The notes beneath the pieces are model-generated. The model had not been told where the DNA came from. It worked only from the letters and a program-made list of their open reading frames with translations, and did no database searches. Positions 5,643-51,238 of a stretch of 64,000 nt of DNA are shown here, piece by piece (the stretch's first letter is position 1; every line of letters starts with the position of its first letter). Origin of the DNA: Phapecoctavirus DIJ07P2; the sequence record OZ035771.1. One strand, given 5' to 3'. Made by a program: the position numbers and the translations under genes.

Positions 5643-6758
5643 GTGGCAAATACATATTTAACTAACGTAGACTTTTCAGGAAAAGCTACGGAAGAGTCAC
5701 TAGGTGCTCATATTGCTTACACTTTTGATTTTCAAGGTGGAGCGGCATCTGGTTATAATACCCCCCTTTTATTTAAGTCAGACGGATCTCCAGACATAAC
5801 TTTTGAAAAGTTAGAAGCTCTCACTAAAATGGGAGAAGATGTTACAGAGTTACGTAAAAGCTATATTCAACAAGTGATGGATCGCATCTCTGAAAAAGTG
5901 CGTGAAAAATTTGAAGCTGGTTGGGATTGGGTTTACGTTATTGATGCTGACTTCGATGCGAACGTTGCAATTTTCTGTTCAGATAACGGTATGTTCTCTG
6001 TTGGCTTTAAAGTTGACGGACTGAATGTTGAAGTTGAAGAGGTTGCTAAACCTGTTGTTCGTGTTACTGATTATCAAGTTGTTGATGGTGATGTAATGAT
6101 CTCCATTGATTTCTTTGAGGACGTTTTAGACGATGCTTTGAGTAATCTCGTTAAGAGTTCCTTGAAACAAAGTCAAGTTAAAGATTATTTAGTGAAAGCT
6201 CACGCTAAAGCTAATACAAACTCTGTGGATGCAGAGGCTAACCCCGCAGGTGATAAATCTGCAAACACAACTGGAATCAATAAAGGAGAAACCCCTTTGG
6301 AAAATATCAACAAAGAAGAATTCCTGAAATCTGCTGAATTCCAAGAACTGATGAAAGCACAGATCGCTGAAGCTGTAGAAAAAGCAGCCGCAGATGCACG
6401 TGCAGCCGCAGAACTTGAAGCACAGGAAAAAATCGCTAAGGCAGAACAGGAAGCAGAAGAACTTCGTAAAGCTGAACAAGCTCGTATCGAAGAAGAATAT
6501 ACAACTGTTGTTAAATCCTATTCTTTCGTAGAAGAAGACAAAGTTGAAGCTCTCGTTAAATATCTGGTAGACAATAAAGATATCGCTGAAACTATCGTCA
6601 AAGCATTCGAAAAAGCACGTGCAGAAGTGGACGCAGTTAAGAAAGAATTTGGAGCAGAACGTGGTGTTGATGTGATCAATACTCAACCTGTAGCTAAATC
6701 TTCTTCTGAACTGATTAGTCAGAAAGCTGCTGAACTTAAAAAAGCCCAGAAACAATAA
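5643..6758 (+). CDS. scaffolding-like protein (possibly with N-terminal prohead-core domain)
   Basis: C-terminal half highly A/E/K-rich coiled coil (AEAVEKAAADARAAAELEAQEKIAKAEQEAEELRKAEQ); located between portal and capsid genes. Confidence 0.45.
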   Translation: MANTYLTNVDFSGKATEESLGAHIAYTFDFQGGAASGYNTPLLFKSDGSPDITFEKLEALTKMGEDVTELRKSYIQQVMDRISEKVREKFEAGWDWVYVIDADFDANVAIFCSDNGMFSVGFKVDGLNVEVEEVAKPVVRVTDYQVVDGDVMISIDFFEDVLDDALSNLVKSSLKQSQVKDYLVKAHAKANTNSVDAEANPAGDKSANTTGINKGETPLENINKEEFLKSAEFQELMKAQIAEAVEKAAADARAAAELEAQEKIAKAEQEAEELRKAEQARIEEEYTTVVKSYSFVEEDKVEALVKYLVDNKDIAETIVKAFEKARAEVDAVKKEFGAERGVDVINTQPVAKSSSELISQKAAELKKAQKQ

Positions 6759-36752: not shown

Positions 36753-39425
36753 ATGTTTCCAATTCCAATATTTACTATTATGACCAGCACTGGTGTCGTT
36801 CCTCTGCCAGCGGGTATTGTTAAAAAAGTAATCACTTTAGATTACCCAGACAATGCTGGTAATTCTAACAGCAGTTTAGCAATTTTGCTTAACGATGGTA
36901 GATTGTTTACTCAAGGTGCAAACCTTTTTGGTGAGATTGCAGATGGAACTCGTAGTGCACGATGCAACAATTTCTACTTAGCTTCTACTGTAGTAGCAGA
37001 TGTGTTTACCGCAGATCGTTGTTTTGTTATTAAAACTAACAGTGGGGGATGGCAATATTCAGGACTGACAGCAGGGTTAGTAGGATCTATAGCAGCAGGT
37101 GGTACGGATGCATGTGTAACTACTTGGACCAGCTTTCCATCTGTAATAACAGGGACTATCTCTTTAGCCAATCTTAAAGAGGTTAAGGGAGGATATAACA
37201 ACACTCTCTGGTTAATGAATAGTGGTGTTCTTTATGGATCGGGTCAAAACACAGTAGGCAGTTTAGGTGCAAGCACTACTAACGAAGTTTCTACTCCTCG
37301 TCAGATAACAAGCGCAGCAGTTGCTTTTGATGCAGGTTACAACCAATGCTCTTATGTCAACAATGTGGGAACCTTGCGTGTTTGTGGAGCTAGTAAAGGT
37401 TTAGCAGGTAATAATAACACAACAAAAGCTTTTGTAAATGCTACGATATCCACTACTGAAACAGTGTATGTCAAAGATTACATCAATACCGTTTCCCAGA
37501 CAATAGTTGTAGGAGATACCTCCGGTGGAACTGGTACAACAAACTACCTTTATGTTAGATCTAATACAGAAACAACCTACACTAAGCTGGATACCTTTGC
37601 AGCAGGTTTCTCAACATGGAAGTTTCCACCGAGCCGTCACTCTTTTTTCGTTGGGATTAATAATTCCTTGTGGGCTATCGGTAAGAACTATACGGCAAAC
37701 TTAGGTCTGGGGTATGATTCTGCGAGCGGAGATCCACTCCAAGTGGGAAAACCAGTTAAACCTGAAGGAGTGGGTTCCTGGGATATAAACAAGCTCACAA
37801 GCGTTCATACGCTGAATATGGATGTTACTAACCAATTAGGTTATCAAGGAACATTTTTCGTTTATAATGGAAGTATGTATTATTCCGGTATTTGGAAAGA
37901 TGGGAAAGCGTCATATCTGTTCAATAGCGGTCTAAACTATAATAAATTCACACCAATAGCAAGCTCCGTGATTACGGGTGATGTGCTGGCAACTAGCTTA
38001 ACTACAGATTCTTTAGGAATTTGTATTGTAGGTGGAACTAAACAGTTGACACATTCTGTTAGCCCAGAAGGAGGTAAACTTTTCAATATTAAATACACTT
38101 CTTCTGCCCCTGCAAACATGACAATATCATCTACTGGCTTAATGACTTTCCAAGCAGAAGGTGGTTTTGATGCAGGTATGACAGCCTTAAACGCTGAAGG
38201 AACAACTCTATCAGATATCTCTGGAGGATATGCTTCAACATTGAGCGTTTACACCCCTAGCTTATCTGCGATGGATGTAGGAACAACACAAACAATGGTA
38301 GCAGAAATAACGCCAACAGGAGCAGCAAGCTTACCTGGTATGGTTGTTGAGTATACAACTACAGATCCTAGTGTTGCTACAGTAGATCCTACAACTGGCG
38401 TAATAACTGGAGTTGGTGATGGTGGTTGTAGAATTGGTTGCACAGCTACGTATCAAGGTGTTGTTACCGCTTCTGATAGTTCTTATTTAACGGTGAACGC
38501 TGTTGCGGGAAAGGAGTTAGCTCCATCTCCGAGTAGTAGTTTAACGGTTCTAAACGGATATTTCAACCACTCGGCAGATGGGGCGATTACGTTCCCAACT
38601 TTATCGGGTACTGTTACACCAGCTAACTTTGTAGTTAAGGTGGATGACGTTGTAGTTCCTTCAAGTAAAGTAATATTTAGAAATAAAGCTTTCTCTACAG
38701 TGGATAGTTATCCAGCAGGAGAATATAGACTGGCTATTGAATTTGCAAGTGCTTCTGTAGTTAATAATGTTGAGGTATCTATGGAAGCAAATCCAGATCT
38801 TTTAGAATTGTGGGGCGGCAACAGGATTGGTTATTCTACAAGCCCAGCCTCACAGTTCTTAAAAGGTTGTGCTAACTTAAGACGAATAACCTCTGATTGT
38901 TTTAGTAACACATCTTACACCGGAACGTCTATAAGTGGTATTTTCTCTGGCTGCACAAGTTTGACAGCTATCCCTGAAGGATTATTCAGCGATACTTTAT
39001 TTCCTTCGATGACAACAATGTCAAGCACGTTTGAAGGTTGTACGTCTTTAACATCTATTCCTTCTGATTTATTTAAAAATTTATCAAAAGTTACAAGATA
39101 CTCTTACACCTTTAAAAATTGCACCTCTCTTGCAGAAGTTCCAGCCGGAATGTTTGACAATATTCCAACGAAAGTAACCTCTTTAACAGCTACGTTCCAA
39201 GGTTGTTTAGCACTTACAGATTTTAATAAAATCTTTAATGACAACCCAGGGTTAACGGTTTGTGGTCAACGTGGAGCATTGTCTTCTTTCTTTAGTGGAT
39301 GCACAAATCTTACAGGAACAGGAGTAACATTAACAAGCACATTAGGTGGAGCAGCTAATAGTTACCTATTCAGGTATTGCACAAAACTTTCTGATTATAA
39401 CAACATTCCTTCGGGTTATAAATAA
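36753..39425 (+). CDS. tail fiber/adhesin with Ig-like (BIG2-type) domain and C-terminal BspA-type leucine-rich repeats
   Basis: 890 aa; Ig-like segment (MVAEITPTGAASLPGMVVEYTTTDPSVATVDPTTGVITGVGDGG); C-terminal repeats of the form F.GCTSLT.IP...F (GCTSLTAIPEGLF, GCTSLTSIPSDLF, NCTSLAEVPAGMF, GCLALTDF, GCTNLTG). Confidence 0.5.
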   Translation: MFPIPIFTIMTSTGVVPLPAGIVKKVITLDYPDNAGNSNSSLAILLNDGRLFTQGANLFGEIADGTRSARCNNFYLASTVVADVFTADRCFVIKTNSGGWQYSGLTAGLVGSIAAGGTDACVTTWTSFPSVITGTISLANLKEVKGGYNNTLWLMNSGVLYGSGQNTVGSLGASTTNEVSTPRQITSAAVAFDAGYNQCSYVNNVGTLRVCGASKGLAGNNNTTKAFVNATISTTETVYVKDYINTVSQTIVVGDTSGGTGTTNYLYVRSNTETTYTKLDTFAAGFSTWKFPPSRHSFFVGINNSLWAIGKNYTANLGLGYDSASGDPLQVGKPVKPEGVGSWDINKLTSVHTLNMDVTNQLGYQGTFFVYNGSMYYSGIWKDGKASYLFNSGLNYNKFTPIASSVITGDVLATSLTTDSLGICIVGGTKQLTHSVSPEGGKLFNIKYTSSAPANMTISSTGLMTFQAEGGFDAGMTALNAEGTTLSDISGGYASTLSVYTPSLSAMDVGTTQTMVAEITPTGAASLPGMVVEYTTTDPSVATVDPTTGVITGVGDGGCRIGCTATYQGVVTASDSSYLTVNAVAGKELAPSPSSSLTVLNGYFNHSADGAITFPTLSGTVTPANFVVKVDDVVVPSSKVIFRNKAFSTVDSYPAGEYRLAIEFASASVVNNVEVSMEANPDLLELWGGNRIGYSTSPASQFLKGCANLRRITSDCFSNTSYTGTSISGIFSGCTSLTAIPEGLFSDTLFPSMTTMSSTFEGCTSLTSIPSDLFKNLSKVTRYSYTFKNCTSLAEVPAGMFDNIPTKVTSLTATFQGCLALTDFNKIFNDNPGLTVCGQRGALSSFFSGCTNLTGTGVTLTSTLGGAANSYLFRYCTKLSDYNNIPSGYK

Positions 39426-39489: not shown

Positions 39490-40422
39490 TTAGAAGCAAT
39501 GCAGGAAGTTTCTACCATATTGCAGTCCAATAGGGGCAAATGGAATATCATCGTCGAAGTCCATTGGAGGTTCTTCTTGATTACTTGGAGTTGGTTCTGG
39601 TTGTGGTTCAGGTTTCTTAACTTCTTTCTTCTCTTCTTTCTTAGGCTGTTCTGCGGAACCACGAATGGCAGCAGCAACTTTATCAGACAGAGCCAGAACT
39701 TTACGAGCAGAATCAATCAGATCTTCTACAGAGACAGTCTTAATGGTATGGTCTTTACAAGCATTGAGAATAGCGTGACCAACAGATGCCCCAAGATCAT
39801 AATCATTAATATCAACACCACGAGATTCAGCAACTTCCGATTTCAGCGTGACGGTTGCAGATTGAACAACCCCAGCGATATCGAAAGCATCGCCTTTAAC
39901 ACCATTACGAATCAGTTCCAGTGCACCATTTACTGCGTGACCAGTTTCCAGACCTACAGTATCACGTTTTTTATAGGACTGCTTAGGAGCAGCATCGTTG
40001 GAACCTTTATTGCCAGAAGATTTGTTAGACTTCTGAACACCATCGGTAGACAATACTGTAATACGAGATTTTTTAGTATTGTAGTAAGTCTTACCGCCTT
40101 TATTATCAACGCGATCAATATCAATACTTACTTCTACACCTTTTTCAATAGTGATCCAATTATCACCTTCTTTGACTTGCAGGTTTTCATAACCTTCTTT
40201 CAGTTCAATGTCACCAAGAGAAATCCAAACACCTTTCTCATCTGGTTTAGCACCTTTCTCTTTCAGAACAAGAGAAGCTCGGTGAGTTGAAACAATCGTT
40301 TTTCCTTCCCAATGAAAAGTTTTAGGTTCAGCGAATTTATCCAGTTTAACGTAGTCTACGATACCAGTTGCATAAGTTACGGTTTTGCCTTTACGATCAG
40401 TTTCAGTATTAATTACGGACAT
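39490..40422 (-). CDS. single-stranded DNA-binding-like protein with SSB-type acidic motif (DFDDDIPF) near C-terminus
   Basis: 310 aa with GAGGAG RBS; K/E/P-rich linker then PPMDFDDDIPF followed by a 15 aa extension (APIGLQYGRNFLHCF); first gene of replication module. Confidence 0.4.
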   Translation of the reverse strand: MSVINTETDRKGKTVTYATGIVDYVKLDKFAEPKTFHWEGKTIVSTHRASLVLKEKGAKPDEKGVWISLGDIELKEGYENLQVKEGDNWITIEKGVEVSIDIDRVDNKGGKTYYNTKKSRITVLSTDGVQKSNKSSGNKGSNDAAPKQSYKKRDTVGLETGHAVNGALELIRNGVKGDAFDIAGVVQSATVTLKSEVAESRGVDINDYDLGASVGHAILNACKDHTIKTVSVEDLIDSARKVLALSDKVAAAIRGSAEQPKKEEKKEVKKPEPQPEPTPSNQEEPPMDFDDDIPFAPIGLQYGRNFLHCF

Positions 40423-40438
40423 TATTATCTCCTCTATA

Positions 40439-40831
40439 TTACATTAATTTTGCACAGAAAGAGCGGAGTCTTTCCATATCATCTTGCTCTAACAGGTATT
40501 TACCTTTACCTATTCCAACTCCAATTTCACCATTAGGAAAATGAACTATTTGCACTGGGAAACCTCCGAGTTTAATTGTGGCAGCTTTGCCTTCTTCGTC
40601 TATAACGTTTCGGATTGTATCTTGCAGTGAAATGAATTCTTTGTTTGTAACAGTGGTTTCAATTATTTCAGATGTTCCAACACGAGCGGTTAGCTTCTTG
40701 TCGCCACCTTGAATAACCAAAATTTGAAAATAAAAAGAGTTGTCAAGACCTACAACATTTTTCTCAACTAGTGTCAAACTGGTGTAGTTTCCATAAACAG
40801 TTTCAACAGCTATCTTAGAACGTTCAGTCAT
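40439..40831 (-). CDS. hypothetical protein
   Basis: 130 aa ORF in minus-strand early/replication operon. Confidence 0.3.
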   Translation of the reverse strand: MTERSKIAVETVYGNYTSLTLVEKNVVGLDNSFYFQILVIQGGDKKLTARVGTSEIIETTVTNKEFISLQDTIRNVIDEEGKAATIKLGGFPVQIVHFPNGEIGVGIGKGKYLLEQDDMERLRSFCAKLM

Positions 40832-40876
40832 TGAATGCTATCCTATCATAAAATGTTTAATATTGTCAAGCTTTAA

Positions 40877-41470
40877 TTACCAAGGAATATCATCTTCTTC
40901 CAATCGGGTATCTACTTGAGGTGGACGTGGAACCTTAACCTCTTTCACAAAACGAAGATACGGGAAACGTGTAGCAATTTTAATAACGTGTTTGGCATCT
41001 TCTCTAACATCTTTGTGCAAGAAGCAGATCCCTGTTTCCAAAGTTGTTTCAAAATCTTTAGAGTAATAACAATCCTTTCCATCAAATGCAGCCTGGCAGA
41101 TGGACAGATCAAACTCATTTAGAAAGGTTGTCATTACGCTTGGTTCCATAATCATAAGGTTGCAAAGCTGACCATCACGTTCAAACTCAAAAACGTGTTT
41201 AAGACCAGTAACACCTTCATAATTGTCAGAAGCCTCTTTGTTTCCTAGTTTACGAATATTGGTTCCCATTAAAGCAGATGCAATTAATCCTTGTATTTGT
41301 TCTTCAGTCCGATGTGCAGGAAGGGACGTATAGAAATCCAGATCACGTCCAGCAATATCAAGAATACGCCAATCACGAACAGCACCGCCAGCCAAGACAG
41401 AATTAGGATCAGCGATCTTTAATACGGTAAGAATTTCTTTGGCAATATTGATTTGTTTTGATTTAGTCAT
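40877..41470 (-). CDS. minimal nucleotidyltransferase (CCA-adding/poly(A) polymerase head-domain-like)
   Basis: 197 aa; LAGGAVRDWRILDIAGRDLDFY matches the class II NTase signature (GGxVRD ... DxD); C-terminus EEDDIPW resembles an SSB-type acidic tail. Confidence 0.45.
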   Translation of the reverse strand: MTKSKQINIAKEILTVLKIADPNSVLAGGAVRDWRILDIAGRDLDFYTSLPAHRTEEQIQGLIASALMGTNIRKLGNKEASDNYEGVTGLKHVFEFERDGQLCNLMIMEPSVMTTFLNEFDLSICQAAFDGKDCYYSKDFETTLETGICFLHKDVREDAKHVIKIATRFPYLRFVKEVKVPRPPQVDTRLEEDDIPW

Positions 41471-41681
41471 TGATACGCTCCACAGTTACTTTTACAACAT
41501 CGTCCATATTAATCTCATCCCCCAAGACCTCAATAACACCTTCCTCATAAAGTCTAGCACATTCTTCCCACACTTCAGCTTCCGTCATTCCACCTGCAAT
41601 CTTATTTGCAAGACCTTTAATAACATCTTCATTTTGTTCATCAACAAGAATTGAAACATTAAAGCTCACTAATTTACGCAT
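41463..41681 (-). CDS. hypothetical small acidic protein
   Basis: 72 aa ORF, overlaps downstream gene start by 8 nt. Confidence 0.3.
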   Translation of the reverse strand: MRKLVSFNVSILVDEQNEDVIKGLANKIAGGMTEAEVWEECARLYEEGVIEVLGDEINMDDVVKVTVERIND

Positions 41682-41858: not shown

Positions 41859-42050
41859 TTAATCTTCCTCCAGATCAATTTCATTATAACAATGTATACA
41901 GAAACCATCATTGTGCATATGTTGTTCATAAGACATATCTTTACCACAAGACCAACAACGGATATCCCCATCGTCCCATTCACGTTCTTCTTCGCCTTCA
42001 AATTCATCTGGTAGGTAAGGCATACCAAAATAATCTAAATCGTAACTCAT
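41859..42050 (-). CDS. small zinc-ribbon protein
   Basis: Start at internal ATG with AGGAG RBS (MSYDLDYFGMPYLP...); CWSCG...CIHCY pairs of cysteines; acidic tail. Confidence 0.3.
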   Translation of the reverse strand: MSYDLDYFGMPYLPDEFEGEEEREWDDGDIRCWSCGKDMSYEQHMHNDGFCIHCYNEIDLEED

Positions 42051-42063
42051 ATCTTCTCCTATA

Positions 42064-42081
42064 AAGGGGCAGAAGCCCCTT
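42064..42081 (-). terminator. terminator downstream of DNA polymerase gene
   Basis: AAGGGGC-AGAA-GCCCCTT hairpin; on the minus strand followed by TTTATAG. Confidence 0.5.
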
Positions 42082-42099
42082 ATAAAACAATACGTTAGA

Positions 42100-44697
42100 T
42101 CAATGACAGGATGCCCAGGAATTACCCACATCATATCCGGCAGTAAGCTGAACATTAAGATTGTAAAATTCTCCAGCCTTAGTAACAGCTAAGGCAGCAA
42201 GTTCACCTGCCCGACTATAGGCTGTAAACCATCCACCTTTGGGAGATTCATGAATGTTAGCCCAAATTTGCCCTGTCTCTTTTTCCTTATTATGCTTCCA
42301 TTCTTCGACTTTAGCAAGGCATTCTTTATCAATCTTCTTTTGTTCTTCAGGATCGTCTACTTTCTTCCAACCTAATGATTCAGGTGAAAACCATTTAAAT
42401 TCTACAAGGTTACGAGAAACTTCAAGCTGGGCTTCATCGTGATATGCAATCATTTGTTGCACGAAATCTTTATTCTTCCAGTCATCTTTAAAGAAGTCAA
42501 CACTTAGTCCTTCTTCTTCGATCATGTCGTCATAAATAACCATTGCACGTTTAGCACAGATAACCCCACCACTTTGGAACAGAGAGTTAAGAATCGCGTG
42601 AGCAGAACGAGTAGGAACCTTACGACCGTCAATACCCAAAACATATTGTTTACCAGTCTTAACCCAAAAATCGTTTAAACGTTCTTTAAGACGCGCCAAT
42701 GGGAATGCAGCTTCCCAGAAAGCATCAAACACCAATTGACCTGTAAACTTATCGCTACCAATTGTTTTAGCAACCTTGTCGGCTTGTGCACCATAGGTAA
42801 TACCATACTTAACAGATTTAGCAGGACTACGTTCAAATTTACGTCCAATAGTTTCAGTGATACGTTTTGCCATCATTGTGTGAACATCGTTAGGTTTCTC
42901 TAACAACAGAGCGTTACAATATTCGTGTGGCTCCGGCTCGTACCGCCAACAGTAGTGTGATTCAATTTTTGCTTCCAAAGAGTCGAAGTCGTAGCCGATC
43001 TGGAAGTATTTAGGAACCTCTACACCAAACAAGTTACGCATCTCCCATCCAAACAAAGATGTGACACGAGGGATATTGGCTACAGACCTATGCTTCATAC
43101 GAGAGGTTGCAGCATCACATGTAGCGGCTGGGGTAGGAATACGCCCATCTGCCCTTACTGCGGCTAAGAAACCTTTATCGTATTCTTGATCTTCTTCATC
43201 TTCTTCCCAATCAGCACCGCCACCTAAAATAGAGTTCCTACGATGCTTATACGTTAAGTATTCTACAATCTGAGTAGCATAAGGAAATTTCTCACCCAAA
43301 GCTTGCAGGTTAGGACAAATTTCTTTTTCCTGACCTTTGGTAAAACATGGGTTAGTCAATACTTTAAGACCGCGACCTTTACCTTTTGCTATACGCTCTT
43401 GAATCTTCCTTTCCAAGGTTTCCGGTGTGCACTCCAGATGATCACAACGATCCTGACAAAAATTAGAAGATAGAGTTTGCTCAACGTAAGCTCGAATACC
43501 TTTCTGAAGTTCTTCCTCGCTCTTTTTAATCTTGGTGCCAGATTTAAGAGTCAAGTCTTTATCTTTATATTCAGACGGTACCCAACCTAATCCTACAAGC
43601 CAGTTTTTAATATGGGTTGTATCGTTCAATGTTGCAGGGATATTAGGATCACACAAAGGCTCATCTGCTGCAACTGGCAGTTTCCACTCTTTACCCAACA
43701 TAACTAACCACCAATCGCCATCCCTCTCTTCCAAATGACCATCATGTTTCTTAGCAAAATTGATCATATGGTTAGTTGGCTCTAAGTTCTTTTTAATTTG
43801 CAACTTAGGTGGAATAAAAGCCTTAAGATAACCTTTTGTTGCTGGTTTAGGTGGCAAAATAGGCTCAACGAGTAAACGAAGACGCTCCATTTCTGCATCC
43901 AAAAAAGCAAGGTTCTCTTCTGCTTGCTTCATGTTAAAAGCAAACCCACGGTGTTCCTGGCGTGTAATAATGTCTGCTACACGTTGTTCAAGTTCAAATG
44001 GACCTTCCCATTTATCATAATCACCCCATTCTTCCATGAGGTAATTATATACACTTGTGTTGGCTTTGTTATCATAGATACAGTAATAAAGCATATCCGC
44101 AGCAAAAGTCTTAAATCGATCTTCTTCTGGAATCTCTTTACGGAAATCTATTTTTACATCACCCCCTGCCTTTCGAGAAAGTGCTGCCAAGCTATGTCCT
44201 GATTTGCCCTCAATCTTTCGATCTGGGTTTAACACTTTACTCAAAATCAAGGAGTCAATAAGTTTTACCTTATTTTTGCCCCACGTATTATATTTAACAC
44301 TGTAATCTAAGCCATAAAACAGTTTTGTAGCCAACCAGTCATAGTTGATACCGTTGTGAGCCACAGCCATTTCAACCAGATATTCAGGCTTATCTTTAAA
44401 ATAACCTTCATGATTAATAAAGTCTGGGAAATCTTTTAGTTGAAAATGTGTGTAATCTTGCGCCACATACTCTTTAAGAACATATGTGTATTTACCATCT
44501 GACTCTTCATAAGGACGCCCATCAAAGATGTATTTAGGGCCATCGTGGAAAGCTACTATTTCTCCTGTTTCATGGTTCTCTAAGACAATACAGTGCATTT
44601 GAAATGTGTCTTTGAGACGATAAGGACTAGCTAAATAATCGATAGTATCATTATTCAACAATCCATTTGCTTCAATATCCCATGTAAACTTACTCAC
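42100..44697 (-). CDS. family A DNA polymerase (T7 gp5-like) with 3'-5' exonuclease domain
   Basis: 865 aa; N-terminal exo motif WDIEANGL; C-terminal region GIDGRKVPTRSAHAILNSLFQSGG...ending WASCH closely parallels the T7 DNA polymerase C-terminus (GLDGRKVHVRSPHAALNTLLQSAG...WAICH). Confidence 0.85.
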   Translation of the reverse strand: MSKFTWDIEANGLLNNDTIDYLASPYRLKDTFQMHCIVLENHETGEIVAFHDGPKYIFDGRPYEESDGKYTYVLKEYVAQDYTHFQLKDFPDFINHEGYFKDKPEYLVEMAVAHNGINYDWLATKLFYGLDYSVKYNTWGKNKVKLIDSLILSKVLNPDRKIEGKSGHSLAALSRKAGGDVKIDFRKEIPEEDRFKTFAADMLYYCIYDNKANTSVYNYLMEEWGDYDKWEGPFELEQRVADIITRQEHRGFAFNMKQAEENLAFLDAEMERLRLLVEPILPPKPATKGYLKAFIPPKLQIKKNLEPTNHMINFAKKHDGHLEERDGDWWLVMLGKEWKLPVAADEPLCDPNIPATLNDTTHIKNWLVGLGWVPSEYKDKDLTLKSGTKIKKSEEELQKGIRAYVEQTLSSNFCQDRCDHLECTPETLERKIQERIAKGKGRGLKVLTNPCFTKGQEKEICPNLQALGEKFPYATQIVEYLTYKHRRNSILGGGADWEEDEEDQEYDKGFLAAVRADGRIPTPAATCDAATSRMKHRSVANIPRVTSLFGWEMRNLFGVEVPKYFQIGYDFDSLEAKIESHYCWRYEPEPHEYCNALLLEKPNDVHTMMAKRITETIGRKFERSPAKSVKYGITYGAQADKVAKTIGSDKFTGQLVFDAFWEAAFPLARLKERLNDFWVKTGKQYVLGIDGRKVPTRSAHAILNSLFQSGGVICAKRAMVIYDDMIEEEGLSVDFFKDDWKNKDFVQQMIAYHDEAQLEVSRNLVEFKWFSPESLGWKKVDDPEEQKKIDKECLAKVEEWKHNKEKETGQIWANIHESPKGGWFTAYSRAGELAALAVTKAGEFYNLNVQLTAGYDVGNSWASCH

Positions 44698-45491
44698 TAT
44701 TCCTCCTTTCTAATGTTCTCCAGAACCCACTGAAGTTCTTTTAAACTTAAACTTCTTACTCCCGCAGTTTTACTAGCTTCAGTTTTAAGTAACGGGTAAG
44801 CCTCAATGATACGTGTTTTAAGATCAGAAGTCAAGGCTTTTAAAAAATAGGTAGATGCTTCAGATAAAGAATCTTCTTCTGTTAGCACTTTACCTGCGCT
44901 TGCTCCGGCTCTCCTAACGGCTATGTCGTAGTCTTTGCTGTTACCTAATACGAACAGTCGATTCTCTCCTAAAACAACGGGAGAACGCTTCTGGCTGCGT
45001 TTAATCCATATTTGGAATACACAAGGAACATCCCAAGGTTCTCCATGAAGAATAAAAGATCCTTTGGGACACTCTTCTTCGTGAAGAAGATGCATATAAG
45101 GATTTAGTTTGTGTGCAAAAAAGATTTTTTGAAATGTGCGAGGTAAGATAAAACAAATACCACCTTCGTTATCCAGCATTTCAGCGCAATGGTTAAAGAA
45201 CTTAATGGCAAGACTAGCGTTTTTTCCGAATGGAGGATTACCAACAAAAGCCGTTACACTACCAACAGACTCAACAGATTGAGCTAAAAAATCTGCCTCA
45301 ATACAATCTTCAAACTTAGGGTCAATATCAAAAGAAGTTATGTTTTTAAAGCAAGAAGAGAAAGCTCCTTCTCCCGCAGATGGTTCTACGTAGTTAGCTT
45401 CCTCTCCAAAAATTTCTTTGATCTTATCACATAAGAACCCCGCATAAGCGGGGTTAGTGTAATATTGATCAAGTGTGTTCAACTTGCTCAA
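44697..45491 (-). CDS. N6-adenine DNA methyltransferase (gamma-class-like)
   Basis: 264 aa; SAM-binding motif I VEPSAGEGAF followed by catalytic motif IV GNPPFG; stop overlaps DNA polymerase start by 1 nt (TAGTG). Confidence 0.65.
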   Translation of the reverse strand: MSKLNTLDQYYTNPAYAGFLCDKIKEIFGEEANYVEPSAGEGAFSSCFKNITSFDIDPKFEDCIEADFLAQSVESVGSVTAFVGNPPFGKNASLAIKFFNHCAEMLDNEGGICFILPRTFQKIFFAHKLNPYMHLLHEEECPKGSFILHGEPWDVPCVFQIWIKRSQKRSPVVLGENRLFVLGNSKDYDIAVRRAGASAGKVLTEEDSLSEASTYFLKALTSDLKTRIIEAYPLLKTEASKTAGVRSLSLKELQWVLENIRKEE

Positions 45492-46007: not shown

Positions 46008-46026
46008 TAAAAGGGCCGAAGCCCTT
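46008..46026 (-). terminator. stem-loop/terminator downstream of primase-helicase gene
   Basis: AAGGGC-CGAA-GCCCTT hairpin adjacent to the gene stop, followed on minus strand by TTATTAAAAATA; coordinates approximate (plus or minus 1-2 nt). Confidence 0.4.
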
Positions 46027-47803
46027 AGTAGTTGCTATCCGTAGGCAAATTAGCAGGATTGTTGAAATACTGCTCTTTGTCATGCAGAGTTGCAGTTCTA
46101 ATGTCATAGTAAAACTGCCCTGCTGGACCAGTCTCTGAGAACTCACGGTTTTTTAGGATAAAGCAATGAGTTGTATTACGTTCTACAGGGTCTTCAGCGG
46201 CTTTATCTCGTTCCAAAGCCAAAGTAATACCAGCGCCTTTAGCCAAGAAACTACTACCCATTGCATCGTCCTCTGTTAAGTGTTCATTGCCACCATTTGC
46301 CGATTTCTTAACGTGTGAGATGACGATAATAGTTATAGCATACTCTTTCATGATGCGCTTCAACCATGTTGCTAACTCTTCCTGGGCTTGAACATCCATA
46401 CCAGAAAGCAAATCAGAATAAGGGTCGATAACAAGAATTGTTACTCCAAAATAGATGATCATCTCCAAAACTTTTTCTTTGATAGACTCCACATCTGCTC
46501 CACGATCATCACACACATAAAAACGTGGTGATCCATCTTCTCTTTCGTAAAAATCTAGGATTTTTTCTTTATTCTCTTCCAAGATTTGAAATTTCTCTTC
46601 CGGTGTTTTCCTGTGTAGAGGAATATGCAGGAACGAGGACAACAGGTTACGAGAATATTTCTTATAAGTTGCTTCCAAGGACAGAATACCTAGGGTATGT
46701 TCTGGGTGCGCAACAATAATATGTTTGGTGATCTCGTTTACCATCAAAGTTTTACCGATACTGGTCTTTGCCAGGATGACTGTAATCTCTTCCTCTACTA
46801 AACCACCACCCAGCATATTTGCAGCAACACGCATAAAAGGAGGCAAGGTAATCATCTTGGATTCCAAGCATTCTAATGCAGCTTCATACAAGACATTAGA
46901 AGCATAAACACCTGCTGGGGTGTATAGACGAGCACTCCAAAAAGCTTTTACGAAATCTTTTGCACGACCTTCTTCCAGATACTGATTGGCATCCTTAAGA
47001 TCCATCTGCATACGGTAGACTTTGTTACGAGGCAGCACCTTAACAATATTTTCAAATGCCTCATTACCTGCTTTGTCATTATCCATGCAAACAATAATCT
47101 TCTTAAATTTTTCAAAGAAAGGGTATTGTGCCTGAACTTGTTTATACATACTGGTTTCACCAGTTGTGCCACTAACTACTGCTGGAAGTTCATATTTGTT
47201 GTCCAAGTTTTCAGACAGCATTTGATAAGCTGCCAGAGCATCGTGTTCACCACCTGTAATTACCACAGTATGAGAACGGTCTGCAAAACGAATTTGTCCA
47301 AAAAGATCTACATCTTTACCTACTTGACCAATAGGTTTACTGAAATCTTTAGGATGAATACGACGCTTAAAACCAACCAATTCTTTACCGATAGTAGTTG
47401 GATATAAACAACTTTCTACTACCATCTGATCCCCTTCCTGACGGTATTCATAACGAACACCATAGAAAGATGAAACTTTTTCTTTAATGCCTCGATAACC
47501 ACGTGGGTTGGTTGATGTTTCTTGAACAATTTTACGATGAATCTGTTTATTAAATTCCGAACCCACAATCTCCTCCTCTTCTTCTAAAACTTCACCATTT
47601 TCTCGTAACCATTCTACGCTAGGAATAGTGTATTCACACGCAAAGCACTTAGCACCTTTATGCTCTCCATTAGAATCTAATCCATAAACCATCAGGTTAT
47701 TACGAGAGCGATCCTTGCCATTTTTCATGCAGCGCGGACAACCTGTATGCCCTTCCTTGCTAAGATCAACATCAAATCCATATTTAGTTATAATGTGCGA
47801 CAC
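46025..47803 (-). CDS. DNA primase-helicase (T7 gp4-like)
   Basis: 592 aa; N-terminal zinc ribbon (CPRCMKNGKD...CFACEY); TOPRIM-like middle; C-terminal helicase with Walker A-like KTSIGKT and Walker B VIDPYSDL. Confidence 0.8.
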   Translation of the reverse strand: MSHIITKYGFDVDLSKEGHTGCPRCMKNGKDRSRNNLMVYGLDSNGEHKGAKCFACEYTIPSVEWLRENGEVLEEEEEIVGSEFNKQIHRKIVQETSTNPRGYRGIKEKVSSFYGVRYEYRQEGDQMVVESCLYPTTIGKELVGFKRRIHPKDFSKPIGQVGKDVDLFGQIRFADRSHTVVITGGEHDALAAYQMLSENLDNKYELPAVVSGTTGETSMYKQVQAQYPFFEKFKKIIVCMDNDKAGNEAFENIVKVLPRNKVYRMQMDLKDANQYLEEGRAKDFVKAFWSARLYTPAGVYASNVLYEAALECLESKMITLPPFMRVAANMLGGGLVEEEITVILAKTSIGKTLMVNEITKHIIVAHPEHTLGILSLEATYKKYSRNLLSSFLHIPLHRKTPEEKFQILEENKEKILDFYEREDGSPRFYVCDDRGADVESIKEKVLEMIIYFGVTILVIDPYSDLLSGMDVQAQEELATWLKRIMKEYAITIIVISHVKKSANGGNEHLTEDDAMGSSFLAKGAGITLALERDKAAEDPVERNTTHCFILKNREFSETGPAGQFYYDIRTATLHDKEQYFNNPANLPTDSNY

Positions 47804-47815
47804 TTTGTTCTCCTG

Positions 47816-48094
47816 TTAAAATGGTTCGTTAGTCTCCATCATATATTCTGCTTCTAGTTCTTCCATGTGCTTTCTAAATTGGAAAGCAATTTCTGCTACA
47901 GTTACATTTAAATCTTTTTCAAAAACTTCTGTAGATCCTTCATAAAAACGAATACCGTCAATTAAAAGCCCTCCGTGGTAATCCCAATCACTTTCACGAG
48001 AAAGCGGATTAGGTTCTTCATAATAGTAATCCACCTCCACAACCAAGGCTTTCCCGTTATGAGTGGTGTATTCAAAATCAAAAGTGTTAATCAT
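47816..48094 (-). CDS. hypothetical protein
   Basis: 92 aa ORF, stop overlaps downstream start. Confidence 0.3.
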   Translation of the reverse strand: MINTFDFEYTTHNGKALVVEVDYYYEEPNPLSRESDWDYHGGLLIDGIRFYEGSTEVFEKDLNVTVAEIAFQFRKHMEELEAEYMMETNEPF

Positions 48095-49038
48095 TATAGC
48101 TCCTCAAATAAAAGTCTACGACGCTCATTCAACACATCAATGTGATAATGAGTCCTGACATACTTAGCTAATGCTAATCCTTTCTCCATGCAAACATCGG
48201 GAGCACTTAATAAGTATTCCGTAATATCTTTCCACTCGGAAGGTGTTTCAGCAAAGAATAACAAATCTTTAAACTCTTGTGTATGATAATTCTCACGAGG
48301 AGAGCAGATTAAAGGTAAACCCTTAGCACCTGCCTCAAGAATTTTAAGATTGCTTTTTGCATTATTAAACACGTTATCGACCAATGGTGCAAGACTGATT
48401 TGATGACCATCGTAAGATTCCATGTAGTTGGCATATGGTCTTACACCTTCATAAACACTAGTTGGTGCTACATTTTCTCTAATTACAGACCATTCACGAC
48501 TACTTAAAACTTCAGAATCCCTACGAAAACCACATATTGTAAGATCTTTACCAAAATCGGGCAAGATAGCCAAATCTTGTTTATGTGTTTCACTTCCAGC
48601 CCAGACTAATGGAGTTTTGGAGTAGCGATCACGGGTCAACACAAATTGACCTTCATCATAAGGAAGTCCATTAGGGATTATGTGCACATTATCATTGTAT
48701 TGTGAAAGTTCAACTTGCAAGGCAGGTGTCGTAGTTGTAACAAGATCACTGTGCTCTAAAAACCATTTTAAATGTTCACGAATACCTGATTCAAAAATAC
48801 CTTCTAACATGTGTCCTTTTGGAATAACTAAAGAGTCATCCAAATCCATAACCATTTTAAAGCCCAGGTTTTTAAGGGCTAAAAAGCCCTCTTTACCTTT
48901 TGTTGGCACTCCGTTAAAAACGAAAACGTTGTGTTTAGGTTGTGAAGAGAACTGCCTTGAGTAAGGCAGCACTACCCTATGGAAATCGCAGACACTATAA
49001 TTGATTCCGTTATGATTGTCAAGAATTATTTGTCCCAT
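48094..49038 (-). CDS. glycosyltransferase-like protein, paralog 1 (GT-B-like C-terminal motif)
   Basis: 314 aa; shares CDxHR.V.P, DLDD, GQF.L..DR.S.TP.VWAG, APLVDN.FNN.KSNLKILEAGAKG.P..CS and HVRTHY blocks with adjacent ORF 49046..50032. Confidence 0.35.
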   Translation of the reverse strand: MGQIILDNHNGINYSVCDFHRVVLPYSRQFSSQPKHNVFVFNGVPTKGKEGFLALKNLGFKMVMDLDDSLVIPKGHMLEGIFESGIREHLKWFLEHSDLVTTTTPALQVELSQYNDNVHIIPNGLPYDEGQFVLTRDRYSKTPLVWAGSETHKQDLAILPDFGKDLTICGFRRDSEVLSSREWSVIRENVAPTSVYEGVRPYANYMESYDGHQISLAPLVDNVFNNAKSNLKILEAGAKGLPLICSPRENYHTQEFKDLLFFAETPSEWKDITEYLLSAPDVCMEKGLALAKYVRTHYHIDVLNERRRLLFEEL

Positions 49039-49045
49039 ACTTCAC

Positions 49046-50032
49046 CTACAAACTTTCAATAACCTGGCGTCGCAATTCGTTTGCATCTGCCAGATTATAA
49101 TGTGTTCGAACATGTTCCGCTAAGAACAAGCCGCGATCTTCCCGATAGTTCGGATTTCGAAGAAGCTTAACAATTTCGTAATGCCATTCTGCTTTATTCT
49201 CTGCATAAGCAACAGCGCGAGCATCTACAGGGTTAAAATAAGGTAATACCTTAGAACAAACAATCGGAATACCTTTTGCCCCAGCTTCAAGGATTTTGAG
49301 ATTACTTTTACAATTATTAAAATCATTATCTACCAAAGGAGCTATAGCAATAGCATGACTTTCGTAAACACTCATGTAATTATCTAAATCTTTTACAGCA
49401 GCTTTATATTTGGCATTTGGTAAATTTCTACGGATTTTAATCCACTCTTGCCCTGTGATACTCTGCGAAGCTTCATACCCCGCAATAGTAAGAAGTTCAT
49501 CATCAAAAGTGTTAGAGACTAGTCGTAAATCGGGTTCGTGACTAGCACCTCCAGCCCATACAATAGGGGTACCGGATGAACGATCATTTGACAAAGTGAA
49601 TTGTCCACTATCAAAAGGAAGTGCATTTCGGATCACAACAACATTCCTATTTAAGTGACGGATCTTATATGCCAAGTATTCCGTAGTCACAATAACCACA
49701 TCAGCAAGCTTAACCATAGCCACAATAGCATGAGTGTTTGACTCGTATAAACTTGCCAAATAATGCTCTGGATTAAGTTGGTAGAAATCATCTAAATCTA
49801 CAACAATCTTAACACCTTGACGTTTCAGGGACAGAACATATTCTGCCCCTTTAGAATGAATACGGTTAAACACGACAACATCTTTCTTAGGCTGAAAATT
49901 ATTGTTGTTAAATGGTACAACAATACGATGATAATCACAACCACTGTGAGGTTTTGCATCAATTTTCAGTTTAGTCCATTTTTTATTTGACATGTGCCAG
50001 TGCCTCCTCATAAGAAATTCGGATTTTCCCAT
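49046..50032 (-). CDS. glycosyltransferase-like protein, paralog 2
   Basis: 328 aa; same conserved blocks as 48094..49038 (tandem paralogs); EAGAKGIPIVCS resembles the GT-B nucleotide-sugar binding segment. Confidence 0.35.
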   Translation of the reverse strand: MGKSEFLMRRHWHMSNKKWTKLKIDAKPHSGCDYHRIVVPFNNNNFQPKKDVVVFNRIHSKGAEYVLSLKRQGVKIVVDLDDFYQLNPEHYLASLYESNTHAIVAMVKLADVVIVTTEYLAYKIRHLNRNVVVIRNALPFDSGQFTLSNDRSSGTPIVWAGGASHEPDLRLVSNTFDDELLTIAGYEASQSITGQEWIKIRRNLPNAKYKAAVKDLDNYMSVYESHAIAIAPLVDNDFNNCKSNLKILEAGAKGIPIVCSKVLPYFNPVDARAVAYAENKAEWHYEIVKLLRNPNYREDRGLFLAEHVRTHYNLADANELRRQVIESL

Positions 50033-50666
50033 TTTTAATATCTTCTAAAGACGCTTTATATTCTTCCCAGTTAATGCCAATAGCAGCTTCTTTCTCTTCT
50101 TTTGTCAGATTAGCAAAAGGCATAGGATTGTTTCCAAAAACATCGTCTGGGTGGATATAAGCCATGATACGAAGTGGACAAGGTATTGCCTGAATACCCT
50201 GATTCAAACCAGCAGCTTTCAAACGGTGTACCCATTCAGCATCTTCAAAACCATAACCGTGAGTGTAAGGGCGGAAATAACCCATCTTCTCAACAACGGC
50301 ACGAGAATACATTGCAAATTGACACATTGCAAGTTCCCAGAGAATAACTTCTCCTTTACTCCCAACAACTTTATCTTTGAAATACTCCGGCATACCAAAG
50401 AAATCCCATCCTCCAGAGACAGCTTGATCTACAAAATATGTTTCCCATCCCTCCATGATTGGGTAGCAATCGTCGTCAAAAATAAACCAATAATCATAAC
50501 CTTCTTCATAAAACTGGTGCATAAGTTCATTCCTGGCGTAAGCTACACCTTTACGATCTGGATCGTTGAATACTCGAAAATCTGCATGTGGATCTGTTAC
50601 AAGATAGTCTTTAAGTGGACGGACACCTACAGTGATAACACCCACTCCGATTTTAATATTTTCCAT
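49983..50666 (-). CDS. GT-A-like glycosyltransferase
   Basis: 227 aa; DxD-type motif FIFDDDCYP and downstream GYGFEDAEW acidic motif typical of GT-A fold enzymes. Confidence 0.4.
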   Translation of the reverse strand: MENIKIGVGVITVGVRPLKDYLVTDPHADFRVFNDPDRKGVAYARNELMHQFYEEGYDYWFIFDDDCYPIMEGWETYFVDQAVSGGWDFFGMPEYFKDKVVGSKGEVILWELAMCQFAMYSRAVVEKMGYFRPYTHGYGFEDAEWVHRLKAAGLNQGIQAIPCPLRIMAYIHPDDVFGNNPMPFANLTKEEKEAAIGINWEEYKASLEDIKNGKIRISYEEALAHVK

Positions 50667-50674
50667 TTTCTCTC

Positions 50675-51238
50675 CTAGATAGTTTTACTGTGATCGTGAC
50701 AGTGTAATAAATGATGTATAGACCGTTGAGGATTTGTTTGACCTAATCTGTAAATGTGAAACAGATACATTCCCCGCATCAATCCTAACCTCTTTCCTTT
50801 TTCATGTAAAGTGCGAGAGAAAATTAGGTCGAATTGGATAGATTTTTCTTCGAAAGGAATTTCATTCCACAATGATTTTCTAAAAAGCAAAAAGAAACCT
50901 GCCAGAGGTGTTCCGAAAGGAACTTCTTCAACACTCACTTTATGATATTCTCTTGCAATCTTAGCATATTCTATATGGTTTAGAATATCTGGATCATCGT
51001 TAATTTGGTTAGAGAAAAGCTGATAACCACTACCTAACCTGTTACAAGTTGCACCTATTACATCAAAAGGCGGGTTTGACATAACAAGCTCTTCAAGCAT
51101 AGATGGTTGATCAGGTAGGAGGAACATTGTATCGGTATCTCTTAAGCACACCCAACTATCATCTGGAAGAACGGCAATAGCTTCATTGATAGCCTTGCCG
51201 ATATTTCCTGTCAGATAGGGAGTAATATAATAAATCAT
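50675..51238 (-). CDS. hypothetical protein, possibly second GT-A-like enzyme
   Basis: 187 aa; CLRDTDTMFL acidic DxD-like motif; same operon as the glycosyltransferase genes. Confidence 0.3.
   Translation of the reverse strand: MIYYITPYLTGNIGKAINEAIAVLPDDSWVCLRDTDTMFLLPDQPSMLEELVMSNPPFDVIGATCNRLGSGYQLFSNQINDDPDILNHIEYAKIAREYHKVSVEEVPFGTPLAGFFLLFRKSLWNEIPFEEKSIQFDLIFSRTLHEKGKRLGLMRGMYLFHIYRLGQTNPQRSIHHLLHCHDHSKTI

Follow-up and report, generated by a model that had tools for sequence, protein, structure and literature searches.

A predicted standalone nucleotidyltransferase, related to Gad2 and carrying an SSB-like tail, in the replication module of Phapecoctavirus DIJ07P2

What is the role of a phage protein that begins like the head of a CCA-adding enzyme and ends like a single-stranded DNA-binding protein (SSB)? 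The question is raised by an open reading frame (ORF) of 197 amino acids (aa) in a 64,000-nucleotide stretch of Phapecoctavirus DIJ07P2 (sequence record OZ035771.1), which is called the window here. A preliminary description had taken its product for a minimal CCA-adding or poly(A) polymerase-type nucleotidyltransferase (NTase). Our comparisons indicate instead that the product, hereafter the NTase, belongs to a large family of short phage proteins related to the anti-defence protein Gad2. The ORF was found at 40877-41470 as described; it opens with ATG and, in the ORF listing of the window, lies on the minus strand, which the description had not given. The signature GGAVRD...DLD was likewise found in place (GGAVRD at residues 28-33, DLD at 43-45), and EEDDIPW forms the last seven residues before the stop. 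The parts of the protein that carry the argument are the following.

40877..41470, minus strand: NTase ORF, 197 aa plus stop; standalone, Gad2-related and class-II-head-like by prediction; PHROG match, AF2 pLDDT 92
41330..41395, minus strand: motif A, residues 26-47, LAGGAVRDWRILDIAGRDLDFY; helix-turn GG and predicted metal-binding D43xD45
41147..41203, minus strand: beta-hairpin, residues 90-108, LKHVFEFERDGQLCNLMIM; AF2 strands 90-98 and 101-108
41090..41113, minus strand: FDLSICQA, residues 120-127; family motif F-x-x-S-I-C, where Gad2 has FDFTVCMG
40961..40990, minus strand: helix 160-168 and FP turn (HVIKIATRFP); K164 and F169-P170 conserved
40880..40936, minus strand: C-terminal linker and acidic tail, residues 179-197, KVPRPPQVDTRLEEDDIPW; low pLDDT, variable linker
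40880..40900, minus strand: tip EEDDIPW-COOH, a candidate docking motif resembling the SSB C-terminal tip (SSB-Ct)

Over the surrounding 5.3 kb, megablast found 64 phage genomes at 95-99% identity. The matched genomes were phAPEC8-like E. coli myoviruses of about 150 kb, of the genus Phapecoctavirus in the subfamily Stephanstirmvirinae. The protein itself was found by tblastn at 95-100% identity in 64 deposited phage records, where GenBank labels it 'nucleotidyltransferase', 'putative tRNA nucleotidyl transferase / poly(A) polymerase' or 'hypothetical protein'. PHROGs assigned it to phrog_10174 (E 6.5e-63) and phrog_1614, both 'nucleotidyltransferase'. An exhaustive hidden Markov model (HMM) search of 50%-identity cluster representatives, with close relatives as the query, returned 1047 representatives at E <= 1e-3 and 334 at E <= 1e-10. 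Because of the match to PHROG 10174, the conservation in 64 genomes and the 1047 relatives, the ORF is a real gene and not a product of chance. Database records already include the gene with its NTase label, and existing Pfam tags imply the relationship to Gad2. Literature searches on phage standalone head-domain NTases, the phAPEC8 NTase and phage CCA repair yielded nothing specific to this family.

Nearly all family members are 175-230 aa long and were matched over their whole length. Therefore, judged by these alignments, the NTase is typical of a large family of standalone proteins and not a truncated CCA enzyme. The remark that it falls well short of a complete CCA-adding enzyme in size holds (197 vs ~400 aa), but the length is normal for its own family. 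Some relatives are longer, and their N- or C-terminal extensions gave no Pfam match, so no informative domain fusion was found. The homologue in Vibrio phage ICP1, ORF223 (locus L003, 4956-5369), a truncated or split copy of 137 aa, stops within the F..S.C motif (...FGASVCMAW); DNA ligase and NAD-salvage genes are found a few genes away.

In 129 relatives with a mean column identity of 18%, the catalytic residues of GG and DxD (G28, G29, D43 and D45) were invariant. Q6, A10, A27, A30, R32, D33, W34, Y84 and K164 were conserved in at least 90% of these members (K164 in 97%), F169-P170 were conserved, and position 161 was H or Y across the family. The family consensus can be written as AGGAPRDW..A.DLDFY, followed by a VQxM strand, F..SIC and H..K....FP. 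As an alignment pattern, this conservation is typical of an active site. An inactive scaffold, in which the NTase fold would be a structural adaptor and the tail the sole functional part, might be argued from the lack of a strictly conserved third carboxylate. We consider it very improbable, as GG, DxD, R32, D33, W34 and K164 are invariant or nearly so in more than 100 divergent sequences, which is an active-site-like pattern.

The AF2 model made from the 129-sequence alignment reached pLDDT 92.3 and pTM 0.84, and superseded an earlier model from 11 sequences (pLDDT 64). Its last ~20 residues were less confident, with pLDDT falling from 78 to 57. The best 25 Foldseek matches in the PDB were all class II tRNA NTases (TM ~0.5-0.59). 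The closest predicted viral structures were phage proteins of 137-224 aa; the named matches were 'Poly A polymerase head domain protein' and uncharacterised proteins including ICP1 ORF223, and 'nucleotidyltransferase' of LKD16 and PP2 ranked lower. On this model and its structure matches, the earlier assignment to the class II head-domain fold is correct; the fold is that of a class II CCA/poly(A) enzyme head, probably together with the first neck helix. By sequence, a phmmer search of the PDB with the single NTase protein gave noise only, such as abscisic-acid receptors. The PDB also contains an uncharacterised standalone 'CCA-adding enzyme head domain' protein of Streptococcus pneumoniae (2la3, NP_344798.1), and no sequence similarity between it and the family profile was detected at E values up to 10.

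Does the resemblance to class II enzymes extend beyond the fold? Five enzymes were compared, those of B. stearothermophilus, A. aeolicus and P. halocryophilus (from PDB alignments) and E. coli Cca and PcnB. Invariant in all five were GG, RD, DxD, E79 (B. stearothermophilus numbering), RRD-T-N of motif B and ED..R..R..RF of motif D. Motif A is present in the NTase, where residues 28-45 read GGAVRDWRILDIAGRDLD (GGxVRD, then DxD on the next strand). With hhalign, the phage family aligned to the five-sequence alignment in only 49 columns (88.5%, E 2.7e-6), which span the N-terminal helix and motif A, and the matches to E. coli CCA and PcnB also cover motif A. The Pfam model PolyA_pol (PF01743) scored 13.9 bits on the NTase, below its cut-off of 23, and aligned residues 26-65 to profile positions 3-41. 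It matched only 18 of the 129 relatives (E <= 0.01), and in the ten members with listed coordinates no match passed profile position 57 of 126. In NCBIfam, the NTase showed only a 12.6-bit trace of a CCA model, and PADLOC reported nothing for the NTase or its small neighbours.

In class II enzymes, the RRD of motif B serves ribose recognition, and the EDxxR of motif D is the base-selecting template in the neck. At motif B, the class II pattern R-R-D-x-T-x-N is replaced in the family by x-F-D/x-x-S-I-C without conserved arginines; FDLSICQA resembles, in its letters, the second half of the class II motif (RRDFTINA) without its two arginines. A candidate motif D in the NTase, E157-D158-A-K-H161...K164...R168-F169, resembles EDPLRxLRxxRF, and helix 160-168 may be the counterpart of the first neck helix of class II enzymes; columns 157 and 158 are variable in the family. 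The hairpin 90-108 is likely the counterpart of the class II strand that bears the third carboxylate, judging from the hairpin pattern. E79 has no invariant counterpart in the phage family, in which position 104 is Q or N (N104 in the NTase). The body and tail domains that hold the tRNA are absent from the 197-aa protein. Class II enzymes have ~350-470 aa in total, so the NTase is half their size and retains a fragment of the neck only.

The proposal of a minimal CCA-type enzyme is therefore not sustained, since RRD is not conserved and the ED of the candidate motif D is variable in the family, the sequence likeness ends after motif A, and the body and tail domains are missing. An enzyme that repairs defence-damaged tRNA 3' ends or polyadenylates RNAs could still be considered on several grounds. 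CCA-, CC- and A-adding enzymes and poly(A) polymerase are the best structural matches, motif A is class-II-like, a GenBank label names a putative tRNA nucleotidyl transferase/poly(A) polymerase, and full-length CCA enzymes of jumbo phages are thought to repair tRNA (PMC7824862). We regard RNA tailing of either kind as quite unlikely. Not only is the PolyA_pol score sub-threshold, with matches that end early in the profile, but the gene lies in replication modules and not beside RNA ligase, Pnkp or tRNA genes. The tRNA-repair hypothesis was lowered because CCA motifs are not conserved, tRNA-binding domains are absent, no tRNA genes were found in the 64-kb window, and the folded core is mildly acidic (isoelectric point (pI) 5.6; family median 6.1). 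The Gad2 relationship and the placement in replication modules, both described below, make tRNA repair a minority hypothesis, and we judge it unlikely.

Gad2 was described as the second Gabija anti-defence protein of SPbeta-like Bacillus phages (bioRxiv 10.1101/2023.05.01.538930). According to the same study, it has ~400 aa and an NTase domain predicted by AlphaFold, deletion of gad2 makes SPbetaL7 Gabija-sensitive, inhibition of Gabija was shown only for SPbetaL7 Gad2 and a Brevibacillus homologue, and SPbetaL7 Gad2 is toxic on expression. In February 2026, its mechanism was still listed as unknown (PMC12904381). In a 2026 preprint, toxicity on over-expression is noted for a small NTase from a T7-like Pseudomonas phage; this NTase carries a 'Gad2 family' annotation in some phages.

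Several comparisons connect the phage family with Gad2. Precomputed Pfam tags of PF26128 'Gad2' were present on the relatives P0009 (60% identical), P0124 (weak) and P0016 (faint). The family profile matched a validated Gad2, the Brevibacillus homologue from the supplement of bioRxiv 10.1101/2023.05.01.538930, at 91.7% (E 7.6e-7), and in hhalign it shared 122 columns with an alignment of 38 Gad2 sequences (96%, E 4.6e-9), with family positions 19-160 set against Gad2 residues 17-142. The family HMM also matched all 120 listed Gad2 proteins, with scores up to 37.7 bits. Common to both are AGG, DxDxY, a Q on the hairpin strand (invariant Q89 in Gad2, Q/N104 in the family) and FDx[ST][IV]C. BLASTP of the NTase against the validated Gad2 aligned the FDxSxC stretch only (E 0.19), and the Gad2 profile had no match in the PDB. 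In terms of sequence profiles, the short phage family is sister to the N-terminal NTase domain of Gad2, and this is the longest sequence relationship that we found. Gad2 and class II enzymes aligned over only 26 columns. The short family bridges the two in these alignments, because the class-II-like RD(W) is retained there and lost in Gad2: where the phage family has GGAPRDW, Gad2 has GGTITSLF. Both proteins are phage-borne, but Gad2 has ~390-430 aa with a conserved C-terminal domain that the phage NTase is without, and has no SSB-like tail. The 120 listed homologues span 355-474 aa, with invariant residues up to position 349.

The Gad2 comparison also bears on a function away from DNA. The NTase could AMPylate or NMPylate a host protein reached through the SSB-like tip, or make a nucleotide that modulates host enzymes such as nucleotide-sensing defence nucleases. 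The acidic core without an obvious nucleic-acid-binding extension would suit this, as would the third-carboxylate position, which is apparently Q/N as in Gad2 and thus unusual for a processive polymerase, and the toxicity of SPbetaL7 Gad2 and of the small T7-like-phage NTase. Nucleotidylation of proteins or small molecules nevertheless seems unlikely to us, as the closest structural relatives all act on RNA 3' ends, and no target is hinted at by fusions, the extensions of relatives having no Pfam match.

The C-terminus provides a different kind of evidence. The likeness to the SSB tip that had been noted before is real: E. coli SSB ends in ...SNEPPMDFDDDIPF, and the two share D-D-I-P and a terminal aromatic residue. 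The NTase has an acidic run followed by I-P-aromatic at a free C-terminus, with a conserved tip behind a variable linker of low model confidence. Eight of nine relatives that share 59-83% identity keep DDIPW, although the linker after residue ~178 differs between them in both sequence and length; the one exception among relatives of at least 59% identity ends in DDSFPW. The acidic ...DDIPW tail is therefore conserved behind a variable linker in this clade. The same tip occurs in P0016, which is 34% identical and has the same synteny (..FPDDIPW), and P0124, from a different phage type, ends in ..SSNDIPW. Other members end in ..ESIPY, ..KPIPF, ..NNIPF, ..SDDDF and ..DVFNF.

Among ORFs of at least 50 aa in the window, the NTase is the only one whose C-terminus is strongly acidic-aromatic. 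An end of this type was found in just one further ORF, of 92 aa (47816-48094, minus strand), which lies beside the primase-helicase gene and ends in ...AEYMMETNEPF. The primase-helicase (46025-47803) has an aromatic C-terminus, ...LPTDSNY. C-terminal tips of the form D-[IV]-P-[FW] occur elsewhere, on SSB-like proteins and on one helicase fragment from other loci. The SSB-like protein of this phage, encoded two genes from the NTase, carries EPPMDFDDDIPF, the same 12 residues with which E. coli SSB ends (39490-39537 region). Its ORF runs 15 residues past DIPF (APIGLQYGRNFLHCF), so the tip is internal in this window. The same extension is present in phi92 and Mt1B1_P17; phi92 differs at several codons, and because these differences are synonymous, the codon pattern suggests that the extension is selected as protein. 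The SSB-like protein stops right after DIPF in IMG/VR contig L012 (with a 100% identical NTase), in L013 (a 60% relative) and in Klebsiella phage FKP3.

In phage T7, SSB and helicase are attached to the polymerase through acidic aromatic tails, those of gp2.5 and gp4. The NTase tail resembles the tails of gp2.5 and gp4 and SSB-Ct (DFDDDIPF) in being acidic, C-terminal and placed behind a flexible variable linker, and differs from SSB-Ct and gp2.5 in sitting on an enzyme, not on an OB-fold protein. By analogy with these proteins, the most plausible reading of the NTase tail is a docking motif like SSB-Ct or the gp2.5 tail, acquired by some lineages of this NTase. As for the phage SSB-like protein, a related one of phage Bas52, which carries FDDDIPF, triggers DRT10 defence (bioRxiv 10.64898/2026.04.29.721553).

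Where the gene lies is informative as well. The NTase belongs to a minus-strand string consisting of primase-helicase, two ORFs, DNA polymerase, three small ORFs, NTase, a 130-aa ORF, an SSB-like protein and a terminator-like hairpin.

46025..47803, minus strand: likely primase-helicase, 592 aa; by position, the corresponding genes being annotated primase/helicase or matching Toprim+DnaB_C
42100..44697, minus strand: family A (T7-like) DNA polymerase (Pol A), first in the order polymerase, small ORFs, NTase, 130-aa ORF, SSB
41463..41681, minus strand: upstream 72-aa ORF, phrog_25475; its stop overlaps the NTase start by 8 nt
40439..40831, minus strand: downstream 130-aa ORF, phrog_16560, between NTase and SSB
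39490..40422, minus strand: SSB-like protein, phrog_4477, 310 aa
39427..39450, minus strand: terminator-like hairpin after the SSB gene, closing the gene string

The 8-nt overlap, read from the sequence, suggests translational coupling of the 72-aa ORF and the NTase. The order polymerase, NTase, 130-aa ORF and SSB is kept in Phapecoctavirus (Mt1B1_P17), in phi92, in Klebsiella phage FKP3 and in a metagenomic relative. In distant relatives, the NTase adjoins a 5'-3' exonuclease (a Zobellviridae phage) or lies a few genes from DNA ligase (ICP1, VnaP). A census covered 138 ORFs lying within two genes of the NTase at 58 non-redundant IMG/VR loci. The commonest neighbours were primase/helicase (13) and DNA polymerase (13), and DnaB-like helicase, polymerase exonuclease, SSB-like phrog_4477 (7) and HNH endonucleases were also frequent. 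From the census and the synteny, the NTase gene is therefore a regular resident of phage replication modules.

The 130-aa ORF always lies between NTase and SSB in Stephanstirmvirinae. Its product had no Pfam or PADLOC match, and the phi92 annotation lists PVP-SE1 relatives of it. It was considered as a split-off Gad2 C-terminal domain, and this was rejected, as no similarity was found.

Other observations were made around the module. HNH or other endonuclease insertions in the polymerase-to-SSB region distinguish close phages (6054-6461 of locus L001 and its relatives; megablast hits in 2-4 pieces). The 45-nt gap after the NTase stop contains a sigma-70-like site (40840-40869, minus strand: TTGACA, 18 nt, TAGGAT, extended TG), and such sites were no commoner there than in shuffled sequence. 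A small ORF (41859-42155, minus strand) overlaps the 3' end of the polymerase gene. Its match to phrog_25582 is confined to the last 63 residues, and 63 aa is also the length annotated in Mt1B1_P17; the ORF has a zinc-ribbon-like CxxC...CxxC pattern (CWSCGKD...FCIHC). The 264-aa protein encoded immediately upstream of the polymerase (44697-45491, minus strand) contains a GNPPF motif and is annotated as a putative DNA N6-adenine methyltransferase in phage anhysbys. Four tandem ORFs of 314, 328, 227 and 187 aa (48094-51238, minus strand) lie just upstream of the primase-helicase operon; their Mt1B1_P17 counterparts are annotated as glycosyltransferases, and the group could be a DNA or surface sugar-modification cluster. 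An 890-aa tail protein (36753-39425, plus strand) is convergent with the SSB gene, and its C-terminal part has repeated ..C(T/A)(S/N)L(T/R).. units, like BspA-type leucine-rich repeats.

One explanation of such a location would be a housekeeping replisome accessory, which adds or adjusts nucleotides on primer or genome 3' ends, is held on the polymerase by its tail as gp2.5 and gp4 are, and has no part in counter-defence. Nearly all Stephanstirmvirinae have the gene at a syntenic place between Pol A and SSB, primase/helicase and polymerase dominate the census, the exonuclease and ligase neighbours of distant relatives would fit, and similar tips occur on helicase and SSB-like proteins of these modules. 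On the other side, many T7-like and rV5-like phages have this type of replisome but not the gene, the ICP1 copy is cut to 137 aa, suggesting dispensability, and Gad2, the only experimentally studied relative, is an anti-defence factor. We know of no phage replisome that needs a Pol-beta-type NTase. A purely housekeeping role is, in our opinion, rather doubtful.

We favour, tentatively, the reading that the protein is an active NTase docked at the replisome or the SSB interactome, where it would protect replicating phage DNA from Gabija-type defences. This reading builds on what is established here, namely the ORF, the predicted fold, the conserved GG and DxD, the family size, the Gad2 homology, the synteny and the conservation of the tail; the activity, docking, substrate and role are what we infer from them. 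The NTase would be catalytically competent as a standalone protein and would be expressed with the T7-like replication genes (primase-helicase, Pol A and SSB). Its DDIPW-COOH tail may dock in pockets that receive SSB tips or T7 gp2.5/gp4 tails, on the phage polymerase or on host SSB-interacting proteins. Docking would put the NTase at phage DNA that is replicating or contains single strands. At these sites it might transfer a nucleotide to the end of DNA or of a primer, or to a bound protein. Replication intermediates could thereby be shielded from Gabija-type nuclease-helicase host defences.

Several points weigh against this reading. No acidic residue beyond DxD is invariant, and E95 is acidic in ~70% of members. 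By itself, the NTase was not detected by the 38-sequence Gad2 HMM (0.1 bits, E 3.3), so the homology holds at the level of family profiles only, and the conserved C-terminal ~250 residues of Gad2 are absent from it. The terminal residue of the tail is Trp, compared with Phe in SSB. The tail is also not family-wide: phi92 ends in ..NNEEFKI and FKP3 in ..AWDDDKI. Acidic-aromatic ends were modestly enriched, with 14 of 147 family members against 32 of 739 neighbouring ORFs (p = 0.012); for an aromatic last residue, the counts were 26/147 and 78/739 (p = 0.013). Since this enrichment is only modest, the SSB-like tip was rejected as a property of the whole family, and the tail is therefore lineage-specific. 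The genomic setting differs too, gad2 being in a variable anti-defence hotspot of SPbeta and the NTase gene in a replication module. Nearly every related genome of the subfamily (64-66 of about 68) has the gene, in a syntenic position, and a housekeeping role in replication would suit this just as well.

A bolder version of the docked, protective NTase can be put forward, although we think it improbable. Short Gad2-like NTases would be the ancestral and widespread form of a counter-defence enzyme acting at the replication fork. In Phapecoctavirus, DDIPW would mimic the host SSB tail and bring the enzyme to host proteins that bind SSB, or to phage DNA coated with SSB. A DNA end, or a host or defence protein, might be nucleotidylated there, so that nuclease-helicase systems such as Gabija are blinded.

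This study adds an explicit position for the short family, between Gad2 and class II enzymes by sequence comparison; evidence that CCA-specific motifs are missing from the family; a census of its neighbours in replication modules; and the finding that an enzyme carries a conserved tail resembling the SSB tip. Gabija is one of the commonest bacterial defence systems, and Gad2 is a validated inhibitor of it. The sister family of half-size NTases has more than 1000 clusters, is much larger than the Gad2 group and has the same catalytic signature. Its members are small, soluble-looking and confidently predicted, and may offer an easy entry to the chemistry of the whole group, including the mechanism of Gad2. 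For phage therapy, this is a core gene of phAPEC8-like and phi92-like phages, and any widening of host range against Gabija-type systems would be useful to know. Should the gene be a plain replication accessory, its interest would be modest. The SSB-tip-like tail offers a concrete hypothesis on where the enzyme acts, and the docking code of this type is perhaps used by enzymes too, not by SSBs and helicases alone. If counter-defence through SSB mimicry proved true, the mechanism of Gad2 would be revealed, and SSB-tip mimicry by an enzyme would be a new viral strategy.

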